This document shows, in pieces, positions 9,192 through 55,372 of a stretch of 64,000 bases of DNA (positions are counted from its first letter, which is position 1; every line of letters begins with the position of its first letter). The stretch covers positions 1 through 64,000 of IMG/VR virus record IMGVR_UViG_3300037222_000084. One strand, written 5' to 3'. A program made the position numbers and the translations under genes. Under the pieces are notes generated by a model. That model worked only from the letters and a program-made list of their open reading frames with translations. It searched no databases and was not told the origin of the DNA. This DNA comes from a virus.

Positions 9192-9675
9192 CCTGGCATG
9201 CTTATTGCTTGGATGTAATAGAGGGCTGCCGTTGCCTGCACCACAGGTTAGCATTGATCCAGTGCTGCAACCGTATGTTAACGACTTCGTTGCTGACGCT
9301 GCCTCTGTGGGCCGCACGATTGATATTAATAACCTAATCGTGCAGTTTGCGCCAGACTTAGGCAATAGCTCATTGGGCGAGACTGTGGGCGAGTGTAAGA
9401 TACAGTATTACAATGGGAATGTTTACGGCACGCCCACGATACTGATAGACAGGCCTTTCTTTGAAGGCACCGATGCGTGGTCGCGACACACTGTTATGTA
9501 TCACGAAATGGGACACTGTGTCTTATTCCGAGTGCATAGACTTGATTGGATATCGCTCTATGGTCCTGATTTGTTTCAGCATTCTATTGCATCATCTATC
9601 ATGTATCCGTATGTGGTCGCGAGTGCGGACGCTCAGATGTTCTCAAATTATTACGTATCGGAGATGTTCCAATGA
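9169..9675 (+). CDS. lipoprotein, putative zinc metallopeptidase
   Basis: Lipobox LLGC; HEMGHCVLFRVH and SIMYP (metzincin-like). Confidence 0.7.
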   Translation: MRALIFTSLACLLLGCNRGLPLPAPQVSIDPVLQPYVNDFVADAASVGRTIDINNLIVQFAPDLGNSSLGETVGECKIQYYNGNVYGTPTILIDRPFFEGTDAWSRHTVMYHEMGHCVLFRVHRLDWISLYGPDLFQHSIASSIMYPYVVASADAQMFSNYYVSEMFQ

Positions 9676-9878
9676 AGTCTAAACATGGCATGATGCTTGC
9701 AGCTATCTTTGGCTTATTCGCTGTCGCTAGCGGTCACGTACCTGTCTACCACGAGCCTAAGAAGAAGGCCCAGGACTTCACAGACGAAGAGTTAGAGGCG
9801 GTTAGGTCCTGCGCTACCAAACAGGAGCGCAAAGCAATGGTGAACGAACTACGGCGTAAATACGCTAAGAAGGTCTAA
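9672..9878 (+). CDS. hypothetical protein
   Basis: ATGA overlap. Confidence 0.55.
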   Translation: MKSKHGMMLAAIFGLFAVASGHVPVYHEPKKKAQDFTDEELEAVRSCATKQERKAMVNELRRKYAKKV

Positions 9879-9879
9879 C

Positions 9880-10353
9880 ATGGTGTATCTATTGTGTTTT
9901 AACTCCAAACTGAAACATGCTAAGCATTATATTGGTTACACTAAAACTCCAGACGGATTAGAGCCACGCATGGAAAAGCACAGAAAAGGCACTGGTTCCA
10001 AGCTGATGGCTGCTGTCGCTAAGGCTGGCATAGATTTTGTTGTCACGCGCATGTGGCCAAATGGAGACCAGACATTTGAACGTATGCTCAAAAACAAGAA
10101 GAATTCCAAATACTTATGTCCGAATTGCACGCCGAATATCAAAGCGGTACAGTACGTATTGCACGATATTGAAACGCTCCCAATTGATGCGTCGAACTCT
10201 TCGACTTTGCCTAATAGTTCGACACTTGTAATCATTGAGGATTCTTACGTAACGTCTAATCCATTGACATATCAGGCCTTCCAAGTCAACCACAGGCCCT
10301 GGCGACAGCGGCACACCGATTGCTATAGTATACCTGCAACAAGGAGTTGTTAG
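9880..10353 (+). CDS. GIY-YIG-like nuclease
   Basis: VYLL...HYIGYT...R...H..G.GS pattern. Confidence 0.7.
   Translation: MVYLLCFNSKLKHAKHYIGYTKTPDGLEPRMEKHRKGTGSKLMAAVAKAGIDFVVTRMWPNGDQTFERMLKNKKNSKYLCPNCTPNIKAVQYVLHDIETLPIDASNSSTLPNSSTLVIIEDSYVTSNPLTYQAFQVNHRPWRQRHTDCYSIPATRSC
10309..10324 (+). promoter_or_regulatory. sigma54 promoter-like box upstream of rIIA
   Basis: CGGCACACCGATTGCT about 30 nt before the rIIA ATG; 14-nt core identical to the minus-strand box at 3581-3594. Confidence 0.6.
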
Positions 10354-12471
10354 ATGAAACTAGCCGCCCACGATAATTCAATGGAGACAAACACAGAGAC
10401 GGTCTCCCAGAACTTTGGAATTGGCAATCTTGCTGTATTGATTGGCCTATTGCGTAAGAATGTGTACCAGCATCGCATTCGTACTCTCGTTCAAGAGTAT
10501 ATGTCAAATGGACGCGATTCTCAACGTGAGGCGAAAACCTCTAAGCGCATGGTCGTGAGTATTCCCAATGAGTTAAGTCCTGTGTTTAAGGTGCGTGACT
10601 TTGGTGTTGGTATCACTCCGCAACGTATGAGCGGCGTATTCCTTCAGTACGGTAACTCAACCAAACGTAAGAGCAACAAAGAAACGGGCGGTTTTGGTAT
10701 CGGTGGTAAATCTGCGTTTGCATACACAGATTCTTTCACTGTTATCTCTATCACTAATGGAGTAAAGCGTACTTATGTCGCACACTTAGGTAGCGCCAAC
10801 GAAGGTAGCATGGATTTGCTGTCTGAAGTTGAGACAACAGAAGAATCTGGTGTTGAAATTCAAGTGGCTATTAAGCCCAATGATTCTCGTGAGTTTCGTC
10901 AGTCTGTATTTCGTGCAATGTATTTCTGGGCAGATACGGAACGCCCAGAGTTACGTGGACTTAGCTCATTGACAGATCAAATCGTCCATAAGCCTGGCCT
11001 TATGATTGGCAAAGAGTTAGAGATCAATGCAAATCCCATTCCAGATTTTATCCAAATGGACTATCACGCAAAATGCCTATTAGTTATTGATGGTATCCCC
11101 TATCCCGTGGGCGAAGATTTGATCGAGAAAATCCCAAATATGGAAAGTCTTTTGGAGCGACTTGTCTCAAAGGCGATCATCCACATTGGCAACGGTGTTA
11201 TCGAAGTCGCTATGTCTCGCGAACAAATTGCTGACAGCCCGTTTACTCTTGAGGCAATGGGCGACTTGGCTAAGACAATGGAGAATAGCCTTAAGTCTCA
11301 CATTACTACGATTTTCAAACAGGCTAAGACCAATGCTGAATGGATTAAGGCATTCAAAGAACTCTCTAAGTTTGCGAATGTTGACGATTATTCTAAGTTT
11401 GGTGACTATTCGATTGAGCGTAACTCAATCCAGTCAACGAAGTTTGCAGACATTGAATGCACACACGTTAGCCTTCGCACCAAGCGACGCGCTAAGAATG
11501 CCTCGCTAGAGCGTGAGACTGGACGTTTCATCACGCTGGATAACGTTGACCACGTATTCGTTTGTGATCTAACTGAGCCAGTAGTGACTCAAAATAAGAG
11601 AATGCGCGAGTACATGGAGCGCACGAATCGCATGTCAATGATGCTCATAAATGCGACAGAGAAGAAAATCGCAGACCCTAAATGGGTACGCCCTGCGCAA
11701 GTATCTGGACAGCCTTTAGTTATGGCTCCCATGATTGTGTCTCTGACATTTAAGGACAGCAAGAAGGTGTTGGCAAAAATCACTGCCGACTTCAACGCTA
11801 AGAACCTGTCTACGCTGCCCTATACGCCCACTGTGCGTATTCCGAAGGCTAAGCGTGATAGGACCAAAGAGATGTTCACGATGCACGAGAGCACTGGTAG
11901 TGGCAAATCACCAAAGACTACCACCATTGAGACTGTGCAAGCTACCTCAGATATGTATTACTACATTCCGTTCAAGCAGTACGACAAATTCGAGAATGAA
12001 CTCAACGACTTGTTCCATTATATGGATAAACAAAAGATTACACTATGCGCTATGACTGAGGATAGTATCAGTATGGTACAGGGTTGCAAACAGTTCAAGT
12101 CGTATACGGAATGGAAAACCAATTTTAAGCCAGATGCTAAAACGCTGGCACGCATGAAGGGCTCTAAGGCAAAGAACTGTAAGCATGTGAATTTGCTCAA
12201 GAGATCGAAAGAAGCTATCAAGGATAAGCATGTGGCACTGATGTTGCAAGAGTACAAGAACAACGTGATTGAGAGCGACATTGTACCAAAAACGATTTTG
12301 GATTGGTGTAAAGACGATCTGGCTCATTTTGTGGCAGAAGATGAGAAGTTGACAAAGCTTCTGAAAGAAGTATATCCTTTAGTTGGCGCATTGGAAAACG
12401 CTTACAACGTTACCACTGAGCATGTGGATGAATTGATTGTGTATATTAACGCTAAAAGCAAAGGGAGATAA
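10354..12471 (+). CDS. rIIA: RIIA-like protein (N-terminal GHKL ATPase)
   Basis: EYMSNGRDS, VRDFGVGI, STKRKSNKETGGFGIGGKSAFAYTDSFTV; followed by rIIB-like gene. Confidence 0.88.
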   Translation: MKLAAHDNSMETNTETVSQNFGIGNLAVLIGLLRKNVYQHRIRTLVQEYMSNGRDSQREAKTSKRMVVSIPNELSPVFKVRDFGVGITPQRMSGVFLQYGNSTKRKSNKETGGFGIGGKSAFAYTDSFTVISITNGVKRTYVAHLGSANEGSMDLLSEVETTEESGVEIQVAIKPNDSREFRQSVFRAMYFWADTERPELRGLSSLTDQIVHKPGLMIGKELEINANPIPDFIQMDYHAKCLLVIDGIPYPVGEDLIEKIPNMESLLERLVSKAIIHIGNGVIEVAMSREQIADSPFTLEAMGDLAKTMENSLKSHITTIFKQAKTNAEWIKAFKELSKFANVDDYSKFGDYSIERNSIQSTKFADIECTHVSLRTKRRAKNASLERETGRFITLDNVDHVFVCDLTEPVVTQNKRMREYMERTNRMSMMLINATEKKIADPKWVRPAQVSGQPLVMAPMIVSLTFKDSKKVLAKITADFNAKNLSTLPYTPTVRIPKAKRDRTKEMFTMHESTGSGKSPKTTTIETVQATSDMYYYIPFKQYDKFENELNDLFHYMDKQKITLCAMTEDSISMVQGCKQFKSYTEWKTNFKPDAKTLARMKGSKAKNCKHVNLLKRSKEAIKDKHVALMLQEYKNNVIESDIVPKTILDWCKDDLAHFVAEDEKLTKLLKEVYPLVGALENAYNVTTEHVDELIVYINAKSKGR

Positions 12472-35508: not shown

Positions 35509-36300
35509 TTAGCTAAGTGCAATGCCCTTTTTTACAGGAGCAACAGCGGGTGCAGGTGCAGCTACTGTTTTTGGTTGACCCATAGCCGTTCCAATGTTGG
35601 AGTTTGGCTGTTTCAGTTTCTTTTTAGCGCTCGTGTGGCCAATAAAATGAGCCAATTTAATGTGGCCCTTTACTTGCGGACTGGTTCCCCAATCTGCGTT
35701 GTTACCTTCAGCTTGCTCATGAGGGTTGTTCTCGGGAGCAGGAGTAGCATTAGCGGCTTCAGGATGTGTACTAGCCGGTTTCATTGCAGATTCCTCTTTA
35801 GGAGGGTTCGAATGATCTGGCTTTCCTACTGGCGGAGCATTCTTTGTCAAATCTGCTTCGGCAATAGCTTTAAACAATTCTTCAGTTTTTTCAAGTTTGA
35901 AATACTGAACATTGTGCATACCAGAGGCGAATTCGCCAGTTTTTCGTAACAATTGATATCCAAATTCTTCTTCAGACTTATCCATTTTTTGGCTTTTCCC
36001 AGCAACTTTTTGTTTAGCGTCTTTACCGGATGTACTAAAATTATCTGGTTCATCTGGTGCTGCGCCACCGCCGCCACCGCCTGAACCTTCACCGCTTCCG
36101 CCTTCGCCTTCTGCTCCATCTGCTCCTGGGGTTGCTTCTGCTTCAGGATCTACTTCCGCATCTTCAGGTTTAGCTTTGGCCTTTAAAGATGGAATAACAG
36201 CGGCCTTTGCCAAGCTATGCGCCTTAAGCAATTCTTCAGTCTTGGCTAAAACTGCCAAAGCTGCTTCTTTTGCGCTGTAAAATTTCTTGCTTTCGGCCAT
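35509..36300 (-). CDS. low-complexity putative internal head protein
   Basis: GAGGG RBS; repeated LAKA, MDKSE, LEKTE, LFKA words; late motif upstream. Confidence 0.6.
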   Translation of the reverse strand: MAESKKFYSAKEAALAVLAKTEELLKAHSLAKAAVIPSLKAKAKPEDAEVDPEAEATPGADGAEGEGGSGEGSGGGGGGAAPDEPDNFSTSGKDAKQKVAGKSQKMDKSEEEFGYQLLRKTGEFASGMHNVQYFKLEKTEELFKAIAEADLTKNAPPVGKPDHSNPPKEESAMKPASTHPEAANATPAPENNPHEQAEGNNADWGTSPQVKGHIKLAHFIGHTSAKKKLKQPNSNIGTAMGQPKTVAAPAPAVAPVKKGIALS

Positions 36301-42466: not shown

Positions 42467-42976
42467 TTACCTTCCTTCAATCCTGATCTTGTGTGCTCCG
42501 CACGAAAGAACTTTCTCTGAGGTAGCTCCAGCTAAGGCTCTACTGAATTTTTTATCGAGGTCCATATCACCAAACACCAACGTGCTCTTGTCTAAATAGG
42601 CGTTAACCGAATACACTTTGTTGTTTGCCTGGGTAACTTGGAATTCTATTTCATTGCCAATTTGCACTGAATACAGGTCGTGTCCAGATTTGCGCAATGA
42701 GTCAGACAGAAAATGCGAGTGACTCTCTACCGTTGGCTCGTATCCCGTCAATTCGCTTTTTTGCATGGAAGGTTGAAATTCTGGATGTTGACGCTCTAGG
42801 TTGAATTTCACAATAGCAGGGTGACTGCCAGCCGCTAGTGCCTCTTCTTGAAGTTTACCTCTTGGACGACCAACGGCTATGTGGAATCCACCGCGAGTTT
42901 TGATCATTTTTACGGGTGCTCCGTTTAGGACACCAACGTCGTCTACTGATTCAATTTCATTAGGTGTGAGTTGCAT
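42467..42976 (-). CDS. hypothetical virion-module protein
   Basis: Packed in late operon; MQKSE and LRKSG words. Confidence 0.6.
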   Translation of the reverse strand: MQLTPNEIESVDDVGVLNGAPVKMIKTRGGFHIAVGRPRGKLQEEALAAGSHPAIVKFNLERQHPEFQPSMQKSELTGYEPTVESHSHFLSDSLRKSGHDLYSVQIGNEIEFQVTQANNKVYSVNAYLDKSTLVFGDMDLDKKFSRALAGATSEKVLSCGAHKIRIEGR

Positions 42977-47839: not shown

Positions 47840-48535
47840 TTACTCTTCTGCTAAATAGCAGATGCTGCCATCTTGCACCACTTCTCTGGTAGCTCGAATA
47901 GGACGCTTGCTGGCTGGGTAATACATTCGATCTAAGCACGAAGCGTTAACAAAAGTGGTAGGACCAACGTATTCGATCCCACGGGCTTCGTGAATATGAC
48001 CAAAAACATGTAATTTCACCTGTGTTTTCAATATCTTATCCATCAAATCTTGGCAACCAGCACGCTCTTTTGGAGTACCGTCAACATAGGAAACAACGTC
48101 TAAGAATCCAGCTGGAGGACCATGCGTAATGAGCAATTCGGTATCATCTGGAATCATGTCCCAGTGACGTTTAATATCGGGTCCACGATCACGGTTAAAG
48201 GCCCAGCTATGAAACCAAGGTTGGACTGGCGAGCCCCAAATCTTGACGCCTTCTAGGTCTACCCCAGAATCGTTCAAAAGAATAATGTTGCGATCTTGGC
48301 ATGCTTCAGCGAGCAACGCAGGAGTGCGCTCAAAACCCCAATCGTGGTTTCCAGGGACTAGTATGGTATAGTCATAGTCCTGTTTTGCATACCAGTCTAA
48401 AAATGTAAGAATTTCAACTTCACTACCACGAAGACTGACATCTCCAGAGTGAATCAAAATATTGCCACCGTCACACTTGAATCTTTCGTGCTGATTATGA
48501 GTATCTGATAGTAGATCTATGATTAATTTTTCCAT
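47840..48535 (-). CDS. metallophosphoesterase
   Basis: SDTH, HSGD, PGNHD, ITHGPP, FGHIHE. Confidence 0.9.
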   Translation of the reverse strand: MEKLIIDLLSDTHNQHERFKCDGGNILIHSGDVSLRGSEVEILTFLDWYAKQDYDYTILVPGNHDWGFERTPALLAEACQDRNIILLNDSGVDLEGVKIWGSPVQPWFHSWAFNRDRGPDIKRHWDMIPDDTELLITHGPPAGFLDVVSYVDGTPKERAGCQDLMDKILKTQVKLHVFGHIHEARGIEYVGPTTFVNASCLDRMYYPASKRPIRATREVVQDGSICYLAEE

Positions 48536-48615: not shown

Positions 48616-50016
48616 TTATCCGCCGCCAGGAATCAATTGGCCAGTGATGTTCTCAAGCAACACGTTTTTGCGTGGCTGATACATTGCCAAAGACAAGAAG
48701 CGGAAGTGAGCTTCGGGCAAGCTCAGGTCGTTTACTGCAAGTTTCAGCTTGCTGTAAGGAGCCAATTGAGCGAATCCCATGGTGTTAGCTTGCACCAAGA
48801 AACCAGTGATCGAACCAGGCTGACGATTGCCCAAGTCTGTGAAGACAGGGTTTCCGTTGTTCTGTGCGATACGACCGATAAACTTTGCAGAAGCAGCTGA
48901 ACCATTAGCAGCTGAACGATACACGTTGTAGTACTGAGCATTAGCAGCAGCAGTGATAGTCACTGTCAACTTGTCACCAGCAGCAGCAGCAACACCAGCA
49001 GAAGCGGCAGATGGGAAGCTTTCGCCGCGCATCGAAACCGACGTTACGTAGTATTGATACGTACCAGCAGCTAACAACGAACCAGCAGCACCGGCATCAG
49101 CAACAGCCGGAGCAGCGGGAGCGGCTGGCGAACCAGTCCGTGCGCGTGCAGGGCGTGTTTTGCCAGACAAGAAGCGCGAAGCCTCAAGGCTAACAATTGC
49201 AGACGAGGTCCACTGAGTGCGCAAATGAGCACCAGTAGCTTCTTGAGCCGAACCTGCTAACATAATGCGCTCTTTTGCGTGCGCGATTTTGTTATAAGCC
49301 GACAAGCTGATAGGATCTAAGATCAAACGATCAGCAGCGCCCATGTTCATTGCAGAACGAACAGAGCTATCTTCGATAATACTTTGGGTAAGAGTTCCAC
49401 CGACTGAAAGAACTACAGTTTGGTCTGAGCCAAATTCTGCGAACATCAAGTCCTGTGTGTTGGACTGAGCGTCCGACTGACGAACTTGTTGGTCAACACC
49501 AATCATGTTCGGAACTTTTGCTACGGCGAGAGGATTGCCGTCAAAAACGCCTACGTTAGAGAAATCTGACTGTCCACGGAACGAGTCAAACTCAATGTCA
49601 CCGGCCAATTTCATGGCAGCGTCAGCAGCAGCGCGATCTTCAGCTTTTACACCGTCGAATGCACCGATCATGTTGGACGCGACAGTCACCCGACGAGTCG
49701 TGCTGTAGTATGCCATGGGCACAACTGCACGAACGTAGTTAGACGTGTCTTCTTCACCCACGCCACCTTCGAATTGGGCGGACCCACCGAAAATACCGTA
49801 GTCAAGTTGACGGTTGAATTGATGCAATTGGCTCTTAACATCTTTCGATGGGAGCATTTTTTGCAATTTGATATGGGAATCGTCGAATGTGACGTTCTGC
49901 ATCACGGGCGACATATCCTCGATCATTAAAGCTGCGCCCTGAACTAAGCGATCTGGAGATGCGAGGTACGAACCTGCTTCCAAAGCTTTCATAAGGGACT
50001 GAAGTTGTTCAATCAT
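48616..50016 (-). CDS. major capsid protein (Herelleviridae-like, with Ig-like insertion)
   Basis: LMKALEAG, GAALMIEDM, F.EGG, IEFDSFRG; insertion GTYQYYVT.V...GES.PS; strong terminator. Confidence 0.85.
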   Translation of the reverse strand: MIEQLQSLMKALEAGSYLASPDRLVQGAALMIEDMSPVMQNVTFDDSHIKLQKMLPSKDVKSQLHQFNRQLDYGIFGGSAQFEGGVGEEDTSNYVRAVVPMAYYSTTRRVTVASNMIGAFDGVKAEDRAAADAAMKLAGDIEFDSFRGQSDFSNVGVFDGNPLAVAKVPNMIGVDQQVRQSDAQSNTQDLMFAEFGSDQTVVLSVGGTLTQSIIEDSSVRSAMNMGAADRLILDPISLSAYNKIAHAKERIMLAGSAQEATGAHLRTQWTSSAIVSLEASRFLSGKTRPARARTGSPAAPAAPAVADAGAAGSLLAAGTYQYYVTSVSMRGESFPSAASAGVAAAAGDKLTVTITAAANAQYYNVYRSAANGSAASAKFIGRIAQNNGNPVFTDLGNRQPGSITGFLVQANTMGFAQLAPYSKLKLAVNDLSLPEAHFRFLSLAMYQPRKNVLLENITGQLIPGGG

Positions 50017-50039: not shown

Positions 50040-51209
50040 TTAGTTCTTAAACAGGTGGCTAATTGTGTTAAAATTCGATCCACCAAGATAGAAAGAGTTG
50101 ATTGCATCTCTGTCCGACTTGGTTAATTTTGAGTAATCTTGCTTCTTCAAAAGTTCAGTAACTTCTGATTTTGAAAGCTCTTTTGATCCTGTGATGTCTT
50201 CACCCTTGGTGATAGTTCCCAGTTCGGTAATGGCTTTACCTTGTGGCACAGTGACTTTGCTAACCAATTTGGCTAGAACTTCAGTTGCCTTGTCGAAACT
50301 TTTCTTGAGTTCCGCGCTAGATGCCTTTTCAGCTTCCAACTCAGATTTCAATAATTCGACTTCTACGTTTCCTTCAGACTTGTGCATTTGAACTGCCTTA
50401 GATGCATCACTAGCAGGTGATTTTGCGCCAGGAATTTTTCCAGGAGCAGCAGCATCTTGTTTGCCACCATTGCGTCTATCGAACTCAGATTTGTTAATCT
50501 TCGCACCGTTAGCAGCACTTGCAGCAGATTTAGCACCCAACGCATTGTGCGGAGGAGCACCTTTAATTCCACCGTTTTTCTTATCGGGGAACATGTTATC
50601 GCCTTTATCTGTAGGCTTAGAATTGATAACGGGATTCTCTTCGCTAAGTTCGCTATGGCCAGGCTTTTCAGACTTGCCCATTTTTTCTGACATTCCCATT
50701 TTCATAGGAGCAGCAGCAGCTTCGGGAGCAGCTTCAGGAGCGGCTTCCATTCCAGGAGCAGCAGGTGCTTGCGCACTCATTGCATCTAGGGCTTGGCGAA
50801 CACAATCGTGGTGAGCCATTAACTCTTCACGCGACATGGAGGCATACATTTGACACATATGAGCCATATCTTCTTCATCATAAGCTCCACCCATGGGTGC
50901 AGCAGCGCCAGGAGCAGCAGGTGCAGCTTCTTGGCCTTCTTCAGGTGCAGCTTCGCCTTCAGCAGGAAAAGCGCCTTCTTCAGGAGCGGCTTCTTCTTCA
51001 GCAGGTGCAGCTTCGCCTTCAGCAGGAGCGGCTTCTTTCGGAGCAGCTTCTTTCTTCTCAGGCGGCTTAGATTCTTTCTTCTCTTTTGGAGGAGCAGACT
51101 CTTCAGCCTTAGCGAGGGAATGTAATTCCTCCGCTTTATTCAAATGGACAGTAAATTCTTTCTCTACTGTCTCAATGAGCTTGGCAAGCTCGATTTCAGT
51201 GTAAGACAT
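50040..51209 (-). CDS. capsid scaffold-like protein
   Basis: Upstream of MCP; Ala/Pro/Glu-rich; many xK-(S/A)E words; GGAGG RBS. Confidence 0.7.
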   Translation of the reverse strand: MSYTEIELAKLIETVEKEFTVHLNKAEELHSLAKAEESAPPKEKKESKPPEKKEAAPKEAAPAEGEAAPAEEEAAPEEGAFPAEGEAAPEEGQEAAPAAPGAAAPMGGAYDEEDMAHMCQMYASMSREELMAHHDCVRQALDAMSAQAPAAPGMEAAPEAAPEAAAAPMKMGMSEKMGKSEKPGHSELSEENPVINSKPTDKGDNMFPDKKNGGIKGAPPHNALGAKSAASAANGAKINKSEFDRRNGGKQDAAAPGKIPGAKSPASDASKAVQMHKSEGNVEVELLKSELEAEKASSAELKKSFDKATEVLAKLVSKVTVPQGKAITELGTITKGEDITGSKELSKSEVTELLKKQDYSKLTKSDRDAINSFYLGGSNFNTISHLFKN

Positions 51210-51914: not shown

Positions 51915-53900
51915 TTGGGCACATATGTAGATGGAATAGGCGCAAGCCAAAATATAGACAGTAGCGGCGAGATCGTTGACATCTCAGGATTGGACATTTC
52001 CAGCCTAGAAGTCGATGGTTCATTGAACTGGGAACACAAAAAAGACCTGCCAGATCAACTAGTTGGCAAGATTCTCAAGGCCAAAAAGATCTTCTCTGAT
52101 AAAGACTGTGAAGACGACCGACAGAAATATTTCTGGGAAAAGTGCAAAGTTCCGTATCTATATGTATTAGGCGAACTGTTCGACGATTACACCGATTCTG
52201 CCCGCACCGTTGCTGGTTTGTTTCGATATGACCTAGACCATCGTGGCAAAAACGCTAAGGATGTCGTGGGTTTCTCTGTCGAAGGTGCCACTATACACAA
52301 AAACGGCAATACCATCACTCGCTCCATAGCACGCAAAATTACCTGTACGTCGCTACCCTGCAATAAACAGGCTGTGGCTGAAATGGTCCCTAAAGAGGGT
52401 AAAAAGCCAAAAGACAACTTGAGTAATATTTTCAAAACTGAGAGCTACGTCGAAATCGAGGTAGTGAACCTTCCTAAGCAGCCAAATCTGTGGGAAATGT
52501 TAAAAACTGAGTCTTTGATGAAAAGGGCAAAAGCCATGTTCGCCAAACCAGTCAAGAAAGACGAAGCTGCCCTGACTTCTGGTGCCGGAACTTCCATGGC
52601 ATTAGGCGGCGGCGCTCCATCGTCTCCATCGCTGTCGTGTTCAGAACCAGATATGGCTAAGGCTTTGAAGGTAGCAAGTCCACTTGGCACGCATTTAGGG
52701 AATACTACTAGCGGTAAACCAGTACACAGCCACGCGCAAGTTGGTCAAACGGGTTTTTCAGCAGAAGAACATGGCGAAGCCGCACAACTTCATCAAAAGG
52801 CTGGTGCCGCAAGCCCATCAATGTTTCAGCATCACAAAGGCAAAGCTGATCTACACAACTCTGCCGCCGTTAGAATGAAAGACGTTGCTATTAAGAGACA
52901 GGCAGCTGCTAAGAAAAATACTATGGTTGCTGGACCTAGTGGCGGCGCTCCAAATAAATTGTTCAATCCGAGAACCAGTGGTACTATAAATTATAAGAAA
53001 TCGGAAACGTTGCAACCTGGCGAAAAAGGCAATAGCGTAACGGCTAACCAAAAACAGGAACGTGATCGTAGGGCTCAAGAGGCATATCCTAATAGCAGTA
53101 AGCGTAATTTTGACAAACACGTAGTCAACCATAGCGAGTCGAATCCTTCAAACCAAAAACGTGCGAGCATTCCAAATCAGCAAACTGCTCCTTCTGCTAA
53201 AGAAGCCGGTGGACCAAGCAATAACATGCTGCACAACAATATTTTGGCACCAAAACGCACTATGCATAAAGCCGCAGGCGGTGCTGGCGGCGGACTTGGT
53301 GGTGGCGGTATTTCTGCTGGAGTATCTAGCATGACTACTGTTCAAGCTCCAACGGTTCCTAATCCTAAGCCAAAGACCGTTATGCCAGTTGGTAAAATCA
53401 CGAAAGCACTCGAAGCCGGTTCTAGTCTGACTTCGCCTGCTAATCTATCAGGAGGCGCTGCTTTGGGTAAAGAAAGTCTTGAAAAGTGTAACTGTAATAT
53501 GGCTAAATGCGCTTCTTGTGGTCCAAAATTGGCCAAGGGCGGACAGTTCTCTGGTAACGTTCCCAAAGATGCTAAGATTAAAGATTTGCAGCATAAAATT
53601 GATAGTGGCACGTATAAGCCTGACGCTAAAAAGATAGGCGAGAGCATGTTGAATCATCCTAGCAAACCCCTAAAAGGCACTAAGGTGCAAAAGTCTGAAA
53701 TGCTGCAACGCGCAGAGTCAGAATATGCTTCATGGGAAAAACGTGAAGAATTTGAAAGTTTTATGAAGTCTCGTATGCCGCATATGACCAAGGGCGAAAT
53801 CGTCGCATTTGGCCAGGCTATGATTTTGAACAAATCGTTTAAGATGGAAAAGTCCTTGAATGGTCTTCTTGGCCTGTTGAAAGAAGAACCTAAAAAATAA
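51915..53900 (+). CDS. prohead protease with long C-terminal extension
   Basis: DSSGEIV...G.D, LNWEH, VGKI, GFSVEG, T..PCNK (HK97-type protease); TTG start with GGAG RBS. Confidence 0.8.
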   Translation: MGTYVDGIGASQNIDSSGEIVDISGLDISSLEVDGSLNWEHKKDLPDQLVGKILKAKKIFSDKDCEDDRQKYFWEKCKVPYLYVLGELFDDYTDSARTVAGLFRYDLDHRGKNAKDVVGFSVEGATIHKNGNTITRSIARKITCTSLPCNKQAVAEMVPKEGKKPKDNLSNIFKTESYVEIEVVNLPKQPNLWEMLKTESLMKRAKAMFAKPVKKDEAALTSGAGTSMALGGGAPSSPSLSCSEPDMAKALKVASPLGTHLGNTTSGKPVHSHAQVGQTGFSAEEHGEAAQLHQKAGAASPSMFQHHKGKADLHNSAAVRMKDVAIKRQAAAKKNTMVAGPSGGAPNKLFNPRTSGTINYKKSETLQPGEKGNSVTANQKQERDRRAQEAYPNSSKRNFDKHVVNHSESNPSNQKRASIPNQQTAPSAKEAGGPSNNMLHNNILAPKRTMHKAAGGAGGGLGGGGISAGVSSMTTVQAPTVPNPKPKTVMPVGKITKALEAGSSLTSPANLSGGAALGKESLEKCNCNMAKCASCGPKLAKGGQFSGNVPKDAKIKDLQHKIDSGTYKPDAKKIGESMLNHPSKPLKGTKVQKSEMLQRAESEYASWEKREEFESFMKSRMPHMTKGEIVAFGQAMILNKSFKMEKSLNGLLGLLKEEPKK

Positions 53901-54829: not shown

Positions 54830-55372
54830 ATGAAACTGATTCCTTTTAGAACAAACAATTACACGTCGGATACCCACTTCGCAGTAGACGATGACGACTT
54901 TGACTTGGTTTCAAAATCCCAATGGCGCTGCAAGTGTAATACTGGCTCGAACCATGTCACTCCGCAATACCACGTATCCAGAAAAGCTACGGCTGAAGAA
55001 AAGAAAAACGGAGCGCCAACAGAAATATCTTTGCATCGTTTTGTGATGGGCGTAGGATTAAAATATGCCAAAAAAGATGAAGAGGTTGACCACATCAACA
55101 GAAACCAGTTCGACAATACAAAGGCAAATCTCAGAATCTGTACCAGGCATACGAATCAAAGGAATAAAGGCAATAATTCTAGAGTGGGATTTGGCCTGTG
55201 GGGAGCTACTTTCAATAAAGCTCTGAAAAGAGATAAAAAATGGCAAGCTAATTTCCACATAAAAGGGAAAACCTATATGGTAGGGTATTTTGCCACAGAA
55301 AAAGAAGCCCATGAACGTGCCGCTACGCGTTATGAAGAAATTACAGGAAACAAGCCTCGAATAACTTTGTAG
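54830..55372 (+). CDS. HNH endonuclease with AP2-like C-terminal domain
   Basis: VDDDDF, LHRFVM, VDHINRN..DN...NLR.CT...N..N, W.A......VGYF.TEKEA. Confidence 0.88.
   Translation: MKLIPFRTNNYTSDTHFAVDDDDFDLVSKSQWRCKCNTGSNHVTPQYHVSRKATAEEKKNGAPTEISLHRFVMGVGLKYAKKDEEVDHINRNQFDNTKANLRICTRHTNQRNKGNNSRVGFGLWGATFNKALKRDKKWQANFHIKGKTYMVGYFATEKEAHERAATRYEEITGNKPRITL

Follow-up and report, generated by a model that had tools for sequence, protein, structure and literature searches.

We analyzed a 64,000-nucleotide stretch of viral DNA, positions 1 to 64,000 of the IMG/VR virus record IMGVR_UViG_3300037222_000084 (the whole stretch is referred to as the window), which contains the gene for a prohead maturation protease of 661 amino acids (aa). 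An internal segment of this protease (referred to as the module) resembles FlgM, the bacterial anti-sigma-28 factor. The record itself is an 86.9-kb virus fragment, 53% complete, and relatives were 155-177 kb in length; the source is an uncultured myovirus from soil with a genome of ~170 kb, and Myxococcus phage Mx1 is among its relatives. The original prediction for this locus described a FlgM-like 30-mer at residues 551-580 within a 52-aa piece flanked by LAK↓GG and VQK↓SE (↓, putative cleavage point), and the sequence reads exactly so. The gene and the features of the module are listed below (window coordinates).

51915..53900, + strand: prohead maturation protease polyprotein, 661 aa (open reading frame with a TTG start)
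53529..53537, + strand: L-A-K(541), putative upstream cleavage site, K541↓G542 (conservation)
53538..53693, + strand: piece of 52 aa predicted to be excised, aa 542-593, with a net charge of +6 (coordinates and composition)
53568..53654, + strand: FlgM-like core, about aa 552-580, a predicted helix-turn-helix corresponding to positions 27-55 of PF04316 (Pfam, AlphaFold2 (AF2), and co-folding)
53685..53693, + strand: V-Q-K(593), putative downstream cleavage site, K593↓S594 (conservation)

Homology of the embedded module with FlgM

PF04316 (FlgM) was the sole Pfam family matched by the whole 661-aa protein: E 7.9e-5 and 23.2 bits (the Pfam gathering cut-off is 25 bits), with aa 553-580 aligned to positions 28-55 of the 55-position model. 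Scores of 26.8 bits (E 6.1e-6) and 28.7 bits were obtained for pieces of 86 and 37 aa, respectively, and 26.6 bits in a six-frame search of the record. All 17 module copies tested matched PF04316 and no other family, with a best E of 6.2e-10. When a profile of the module was compared with PDB, the two best matches were both FlgMs (9wsf_B, E 0.034; 1rp3_B, E 0.61), while the sole match in a PDB sequence search with the family profile was a spurious one to huntingtin. Helices were predicted at residues 550-564 and 571-579 in the full-length AF2 model, with a predicted local distance difference test (pLDDT) value of about 70. The module is internal to a protease gene located beside capsid genes, and is not a stand-alone protein; no flagellar genes were found in the window.

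A second profile was made from only four phage copies of the module (38 positions) and scored against 1.84 billion representative proteins, giving 98 matches at E<=1e-3, of which 21 were at <=1e-10. Eight of the matches were proteases or protease fragments. The tail of the matches consisted of proteins of 88-125 aa with the match at their C-terminus, and 10 of the 10 tested were full FlgMs by Pfam (36-82 bits, positions ~1-55). With the 86-aa piece as the query, a single protein was matched in a word-indexed search. The match to the FlgM profile, on which the original prediction depended, is therefore real and also works in reverse, from a phage-only profile to genuine FlgMs. Judged from these alignments, the module is very probably a true derivative of FlgM, corresponding to its C-terminal sigma-28-binding helix-turn-helix.

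A protein search gave 195 relatives of the protease, and counts were taken among the 120 that were listed. Thirteen of these carried a precomputed match to PF04316 (for three, the name given by the Joint Genome Institute pipeline was 'anti-sigma28 factor'). Using a custom hidden Markov model of the module, strong matches (E<=5e-17) were found in 21 and a weak match in one (P0012), mostly among the closest relatives, and the 66 IMG/VR loci of the wider family gave two strong and one weak. Mx1, a phage of the non-flagellated Myxococcus, does not carry the module. The mean pairwise identity among the 21 carriers was 64.3% in the module, similar to that in the C-terminal domain of the protease (62.0%), and 38-48% in the flanking linkers. 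The module, which was thus conserved in related phages and more so than its linkers, is under selection.

Architecture of the protease and its putative cleavage sites

The other features of the protease, together with the adjoining virion genes, were as follows.

51915..52436, + strand: catalytic domain, aa 1 to ~160; this part ends at the conserved F-K↓T-E junction, K174↓T175 (AF2 fold and conservation)
52677..52919, + strand: conserved middle module, aa 255-335 (AF2 confidence and conservation; no family match)
53403..53495, + strand: site at K497↓A498, then a copy of the N-terminal segment of the capsid protein, aa 498-527 (tblastn and conservation)
53694..53897, + strand: conserved C-terminal domain, aa 594-661 (family-wide conservation and a helical model)
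50040..51209, - strand: Ala/Pro/Glu/Lys-rich scaffold-like protein, a presumed protease substrate (no PHROG match; site motif enriched)
48616..50016, - strand: major capsid protein (phrog_752 'major head protein', E 9.6e-46)

The 661-aa gene product is a prohead protease, as indicated by its PHROG match, its gp21/assemblin fold, and its capsid and scaffold neighbors. The family phrog_1028 ('head maturation protease') matched aa 4-160 (E 2.1e-6). In tblastn searches, the annotated prohead protease of Mx1 was matched with 39% identity (E 2e-31), as were those annotated in Twort, SP-10, Goe9/10, and SPO1-like Bacillus phages; the matches to prohead proteases of cultured phages always lay within the first ~160-210 residues. 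A megablast search with the protease gene against 50,697 cultured-phage records gave no match. The capsid gene is 1.9 kb from the protease gene with the scaffold-like gene in between, both just upstream on the opposite strand. Directly downstream of the capsid gene, the virion block contains a metallophosphoesterase gene (47840-48535, - strand; phrog_1649, E 1.6e-13), and an HNH endonuclease gene (54830-55372, + strand; phrog_99, E 1.7e-22) is located between the protease block and NAD-salvage genes.

Since the full-length AF2 model, made with 21 close relatives, was poor (pLDDT 50), aa 1-200 were refolded with 47 diverse sequences, and the pLDDT of the resulting model was 86.7. By VIA-align, this catalytic model gave Z values of 9.4 with the varicella-zoster virus protease (root-mean-square deviation 2.9, 111 aligned residues) and 9.2 with T4 gp21 (5jbl_B; 2.8, 116 aligned residues), and unrelated entries reached only about 5. 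Herpesvirus maturation proteases were also at the top of the Foldseek results (nearly all among the matches listed; best E 3e-3). As modeled, the catalytic domain has the fold of T4 gp21 and herpesvirus assemblin. His41 and Ser121 were invariant across the 47 diverse relatives, and are candidates for the catalytic His and Ser residues; F173, K174, T175, and E176 at the end of this part were invariant among the 21 module carriers.

The middle module was the sole part of the full-length AF2 model to reach pLDDT values of 85-95, and G262, T264, G267, H286, A289, H293, and H314 were nearly invariant among 46 relatives. Further downstream, when the N-terminal 120 aa of the capsid protein were used in a tblastn search, the protease gene was matched as well in many relatives, at the segment of aa 498-527, and K497, A501, G502, S503, and P508 were invariant in the carriers. 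The N-terminus of the capsid protein was conserved in relatives, with one L-M-K↓A site ahead of the segment copied in the protease; this segment (49930-50016, - strand) starts directly after Lys in the capsid protein and the protease alike. The copy possibly mimics a substrate or an exosite; alternatively, it may serve for docking to the capsid. The C-terminal domain was conserved family-wide (R599, A600, E601, Y604, W607, P622, and G633) and helical in the full-length model (pLDDT 80-86), and is presumed, by analogy, to be a prohead-docking element.

Among the 21 carriers, K497, K593, and S594 were invariant and K541 was nearly so; the intervening sequence differed in length and content. The upstream site read hydrophobic-x-K before G/D/A in every aligned row, and residue 595 varied (E/T/A/K/Q/D). 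Lys, not Glu, was taken as the conserved P1 residue because the Glu positions varied among carriers while Lys was fixed. Cleavage after Glu (K-S-E↓) was rejected on this basis: residue 595 and the Glu of K-A-L-E vary, and Lys is invariant. A weaker internal site, V-P-K↓D, would give a 42-aa piece (aa 552-593) with an isoelectric point of 9.8.

The motif [LMIVF]-x-K-[SAGDT] was counted in 57 proteins of the window and compared with 300 composition shuffles of each. An excess was found in only four proteins, all from the virion block, and z was <2.3 in all others. The scaffold-like protein was at the top of the 57 (11 versus 3.1 expected, z 4.7), and the protease itself had 14 sites versus 6.4 expected (z 3.2). 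The other two, encoded at 35509-36300 (- strand; 8 versus 2.1 expected, z 4.3) and 42467-42976 (- strand; 4 versus 1.1 expected, z 2.8), are probably further substrates of the protease, or cargo of the head. The capsid protein had a single, N-terminal motif site. Taken from the conserved sites on its two sides, it is probable that the module is cut out of the protease.

The protease family keeps its catalytic and C-terminal domains and varies in the region between them, which in the protease of the window is long and, for the most part, disordered. A full VTC domain (E ~1e-35) was found in the proteases of relatives P0061 and P0069 and a GNAT acetyltransferase domain in that of P0073, and the proteases of P0039 and P0042 end in DUF5661. 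The VTC domains lay after the F-K-[ST]-E junction and ahead of the K↓..AGS landmark, with motif sites on both sides. Because the middle region of the family holds such varied domains, the FlgM-like module is one of several accessory inserts. The VTC and GNAT inserts suggest a cargo role for the accessory region, and the relatives with VTC, GNAT, or DUF5661 are candidates for other capsid-loaded effectors. In P0003, P0007, P0008, and the fragment P0160, the FlgM-like module is followed by an extra conserved insert of ~55 aa containing Ala-Gln-Arg-Arg-Trp-Ala-His, which is possibly another cargo bead.

A second modular family and the predicted contact with FliA

At least 50 matches of the reverse profile came from a second family, the members of which are modular phage proteins of 75-490 aa with a conserved N-terminal helix, which ended in E-L-x-K in 42 of 50, and short recurring modules. 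PF04316 was the main or only Pfam match in 10 of the 10 tested, and the match extended over positions 8-55 in P0147 and P0149. A hydrophobic-x-K↓[SAGDT] site ended 0-14 residues before the FlgM-like module in 46 of 47, and such sites totaled 176 versus 96.1 expected from composition. Seven loci of this family were found in IMG/VR, and the neighborhoods of five were examined. In L101 (9002-10444), the gene comes directly after that of the capsid protein, within a head block that includes a protease of the same family as that of the window, and in L102 (9809-10177), it lies in a structural block after a collagen-like fiber gene. In L099, L100, and L105 (about 9200-10800), it is divergent, beside a ClpP-like protease and among nucleotide-metabolism genes.

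No module other than the FlgM-like one was found in common between the second family and the window. In P0009 and P0016, a repeated Gly-[HF]-Gly-Lys-[IV] motif replaces the FlgM-like module, and since a similar Gly-rich repeat occurs in the second family, at least two short modules are common to both families. The beads strung together in the second family included the motif Cys-Ser-x-Asn-Gly-Gln-Trp, with hydrophobic-x-K at its end, a repeat of Gly-x-Gly-Lys-[IV], and an acidic block rich in His and Asp; in P0144, DUF6321 was additionally present at the end of the protein.

A genome scan detected the protease in four contigs of metagenome-assembled genomes (MAGs), labeled Deltaproteobacteria (two), Planctomycetaceae, and Saccharibacteria. 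In the bog MAG 'Deltaproteobacteria bacterium bog_1112', two of the contigs were of this type of phage, and the module was present in one, L006; the MAG also had flagellar genes, a genuine FlgM, and FliA (with the gene partly masked). FliA was present in 13 of the 13 genomes searched around this MAG, and that of G007 was 93.7% identical to the MAG FliA over 190 residues; a FliA gene of this candidate lineage was recovered at L092:1483-2238 (- strand). The FlgMs of this candidate lineage have a distinctive tail in common with P0213, a genuine FlgM found by the phage profile. The GC contents of the phage and the candidate host were similar (0.40-0.47) and uninformative. The original prediction had mentioned Bdellovibrio; it was correct that FliA is a global regulator of the attack phase there, according to PMC3627812, but nothing in our data tied the phage to that genus. 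In five genomes of the candidate lineage, the counts of a crude sigma-28 promoter pattern were not clearly above those of the reversed control (42 versus 68 in G003, for instance, with an excess only in G017, 31 versus 17); therefore, there was no evidence for FliA as a global regulator in this lineage.

Six FliAs from the candidate lineage (alignment A3) were co-folded with aa 542-593 of the carrier alignment (A4), together with three controls. The interaction prediction score from aligned errors (ipSAE) was 0.61 (0.55, 0.61, and 0.61 in the separate runs), versus 0.00 for the best of the three controls; the mark used was attained by 58 of 80 solved complexes versus 2 of 110 mismatched pairs. 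The runs agreed in at least 54% of contacts, and the pLDDT of the partner was at least 60. Contacts were predicted between residues 189-224 of FliA (region 4) and residues 554-581 of the module, so that the model agreed with the proposed target and passed its controls. In this model, the module looks like a region-4 binder, which is a likeness and not binding. Overall, we consider it somewhat more likely than not that the module binds host FliA.

The same helix-turn-helix may be read without any contact to sigma-28, as a basic element that would attach to DNA, the scaffold, the portal, or the inside of the capsid during assembly or packaging, comparable to the C-terminal coat-binding helix-loop-helix of phage scaffolding proteins. 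Its FlgM likeness would then reflect ancestry without retained function, or the convergence of a short amphipathic motif. Consistent with this, the module is confined to proteins of the prohead-core type (the protease and at least some modular proteins in structural blocks), adjoins the copy of the capsid N-terminal segment, and is short, Lys-rich, and helical, with half of the FlgM domain only. On the other hand, an assembly element should be universal, whereas the module is dispensable, being absent from 98 of the 120 listed relatives. Furthermore, the two-way FlgM matches were strong for 38 positions, with E down to 3.4e-6 against the 1.84 billion proteins, and the conserved hydrophobic positions are those that face FliA region 4 in the model. 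A purely structural role is less likely because of the absence from these relatives and the two-way matches, and we regard it as distinctly improbable.

A further reading is that the module controls transcription of the phage itself, with a phage sigma factor or host sigma-28 kept inactive until the proheads sequester the protease. This would provide an attractive analogy with the export checkpoint of flagellar FlgM. However, searches of the record and of two relatives with 100% completeness found no sigma-70-family domain: nothing matched PF04542 at E<=1, and PF04545 gave only a match of 12.6 bits (E 0.019). Sigma-28-type promoter patterns in the window were also at the level of chance (1 versus 0.40 expected and 2 versus 1.94 expected), and the counts in whole records versus the reversed control were 1 versus 1 (G000), 0 versus 3 (G001), and 1 versus 1 (G002). 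A checkpoint based on a phage sigma factor or on sigma-28 phage promoters was disfavored on both grounds, and we give this reading very little credence. A single near-consensus sigma-28 promoter (TAAAGTTT, spacer, CCGATA) was present in one complete relative (G002:C1:143844-143869; L107); it was isolated and at chance frequency.

Proposed packaging and injection, and comparison with known systems

The best overall explanation, which we put forward tentatively and at a little under an even chance, is a FlgM-derived cargo borne by the protease, which is released, packaged, and injected, and blocks sigma-28. Homology, conservation, modularity, and the motif statistics were observed directly; the contact with FliA is predicted in silico, and cleavage, retention in the head, and injection are inferred. 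A swappable FlgM-derived module would have been inserted just ahead of the C-terminal domain and, because it is carried on the protease, would be brought into every prohead. The protease would then release it as a basic peptide of 42-52 aa at hydrophobic-x-Lys sites, a step that is most likely because the module is bounded by conserved sites of this type, as in head-core substrates. In the preferred route, the basic peptide would stay with the packaged DNA and enter the next host by injection; taken as a separate step, such packaging and injection is doubtful. Within that host, the peptide would bind region 4 of FliA and block sigma-28 transcription, and the cell would be unable to export it, since the N-terminal half of FlgM is absent. 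Of the earlier interpretation, the FlgM homology, the conservation, the co-folding, and the sites (by their conservation and motif enrichment) held up; Bdellovibrio as a host did not, and the excision, retention, and injection that it proposed are presumed steps.

Delivery of host-directed proteins from the prohead core is known in T4: IPI, IPII, IPIII, and gpAlt are located in the core, trimmed by gp21, and delivered to the next cell, where Alt modifies host RNA polymerase (PMC9958956). The T4 cargo is encoded by separate genes, has an N-terminal targeting peptide of ~10 aa, and is retained as folded protein after cleavage behind Glu. In contrast, the module is embedded in the protease, would be a peptide of 42-52 aa with predicted cleavage after Lys, and may be retained and injected. 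The gp21-related proteases gp175 of phiKZ and gp245 of SPN3US (MEROPS S80) process many inner-head proteins at a short motif, A/S/G-x-E, and processed ejection proteins of giant phages, a virion RNA polymerase among them, are delivered into the host together with the DNA (PMC5694885). The protease of the window has only the fold in common with these enzymes, with no sequence match, and neither anti-sigma cargo nor protease-embedded cargo is described for phiKZ and SPN3US in the sections of PMC5694885 cited here.

These systems also show how a peptide may be lost. In T4, core proteins are degraded by gp21 to small peptides, which presumably leave through gaps in the shell; IPI-III and Alt undergo only trimming, and IPI is injected (PMC9958956). 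Propeptides are likewise cleared in SPN3US, where multiple sites were suggested to aid clearance, although virions still contained one detectable N-terminal fragment (PMC5694885). A peptide that leaves the prohead would favor another reading, namely, a real sigma-28 binder that acts in the producing cell with nothing injected. Either the uncleaved late precursor would bind FliA, or the peptide would be freed from proheads into the cytoplasm, and flagellin and late flagellar genes (or much host transcription, in a host with FliA as a global regulator) would be switched off during assembly. The homology, conservation, and co-folding evidence fits this equally well; small cleavage products are reported to escape the proheads of T4 and giant phages (PMC9958956, PMC5694885), and three of the five second-family loci examined are beside a ClpP-like protease, outside an obvious head block. 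However, a late structural gene would be an odd site for an inhibitor of the current infection. Action in the producing cell also leaves unexplained the fusion to a prohead-resident protein, the conserved cut sites on both sides of the module, and the VTC and GNAT enzymes in relatives of the protease, and we consider it unlikely.

Several observations weigh against delivery of a protease-borne anti-sigma-28 peptide. The whole-protein score of 23.2 bits falls just under the Pfam cut-off, and just positions 27/28-55 of the FlgM model are present, whereas the genuine FlgMs tested align over positions 1-55. FlgM in the solved structure wraps both sigma-2 and sigma-4 (PMC4598750), and half of the domain may therefore bind weakly; because complexes of sigma-28 and FlgM have already been solved, the co-folding result may reflect memory. 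Lys at P1 is a prediction, since gp21-type proteases of T4 and phiKZ/SPN3US cut after Glu (PMC5694885), and a peptide of 42-52 aa may be lost because short core fragments generally leave proheads, as described above for T4 and SPN3US. The 98 listed relatives without the module count here as well, and tblastn searches with the module and with P0147 found no cultured phage carrying it among the 50,697 records. Finally, the co-folded FliA came from a relative of the bog MAG, the link of which to the phage comes from binning only, and only one of the 131 genomes of the class of this MAG holds the protease.

The C-terminal helix-turn-helix of bacterial FlgM (PF04316; with sigma-28 in Aquifex aeolicus, 1RP3/1SC5; 9WSF) belongs to the same sequence family as the module. 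According to the co-folded model, the partner surface is also sigma region 4, and the module probably occludes the sigma factor likewise. FlgM is a stand-alone protein of ~90-125 aa from a flagellar operon, whereas the module is an internal protease segment covering positions 27-55. FlgM is exported via the flagellar type III apparatus (PMC3861889); the phage module is without the N-terminal export region, and its release, if any, would be by proteolysis rather than by export of the FlgM type.

Phage proteins with the same target region act after infection. AsiA of T4 is a small protein of this kind that binds sigma region 4. The Thermus phage protein gp39 is also small, and redirects or silences host transcription via sigma region 4 (PMC3950348). 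Proteins of the gp39/AsiA type differ from the module in that they target the housekeeping sigma factor, are unrelated in sequence, and are products of early genes that are not part of a structural protein. A search of the literature (main texts) found no paper on a phage-encoded FlgM, and two candidate papers mention host flgM only. Injected phage proteins that prepare the host and anti-sigma factors made after infection are known separately, and an anti-sigma factor embedded in the protease would join both. New here are the module between conserved protease sites in a prohead protease, its spread into a second modular family, and the protease as a carrier of swappable inserts.

In its broadest form, the proposal would be that the protease of Mx1-related soil phages, and bead-string polyproteins of other phages, are carriers with a swappable cargo slot, the modules of which (the FlgM-derived peptide and, in relatives, VTC or GNAT enzymes) would be cut out at hydrophobic-x-Lys sites, loaded into the capsid, and injected before any phage gene is expressed; this generalization is speculative, and we hold it with considerable doubt. 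If true, the FlgM piece would be the first anti-sigma factor to be delivered by a virion and would act as a transcription brake that the host cannot export, and hosts with a free-swimming program largely run by FliA would lose much transcription on phage arrival. A peptide as short as 42-52 aa may inhibit FliA in diverse bacteria. Insertion of a host-derived motif between protease sites of a prohead-resident protein would show a simple route to new injected effectors, and the module recurs in about 20 lineages of the protease and, in the second family, in at least 50 clusters, which suggests a wide importance of sigma-28 silencing for uncultured phages that infect flagellated bacteria.

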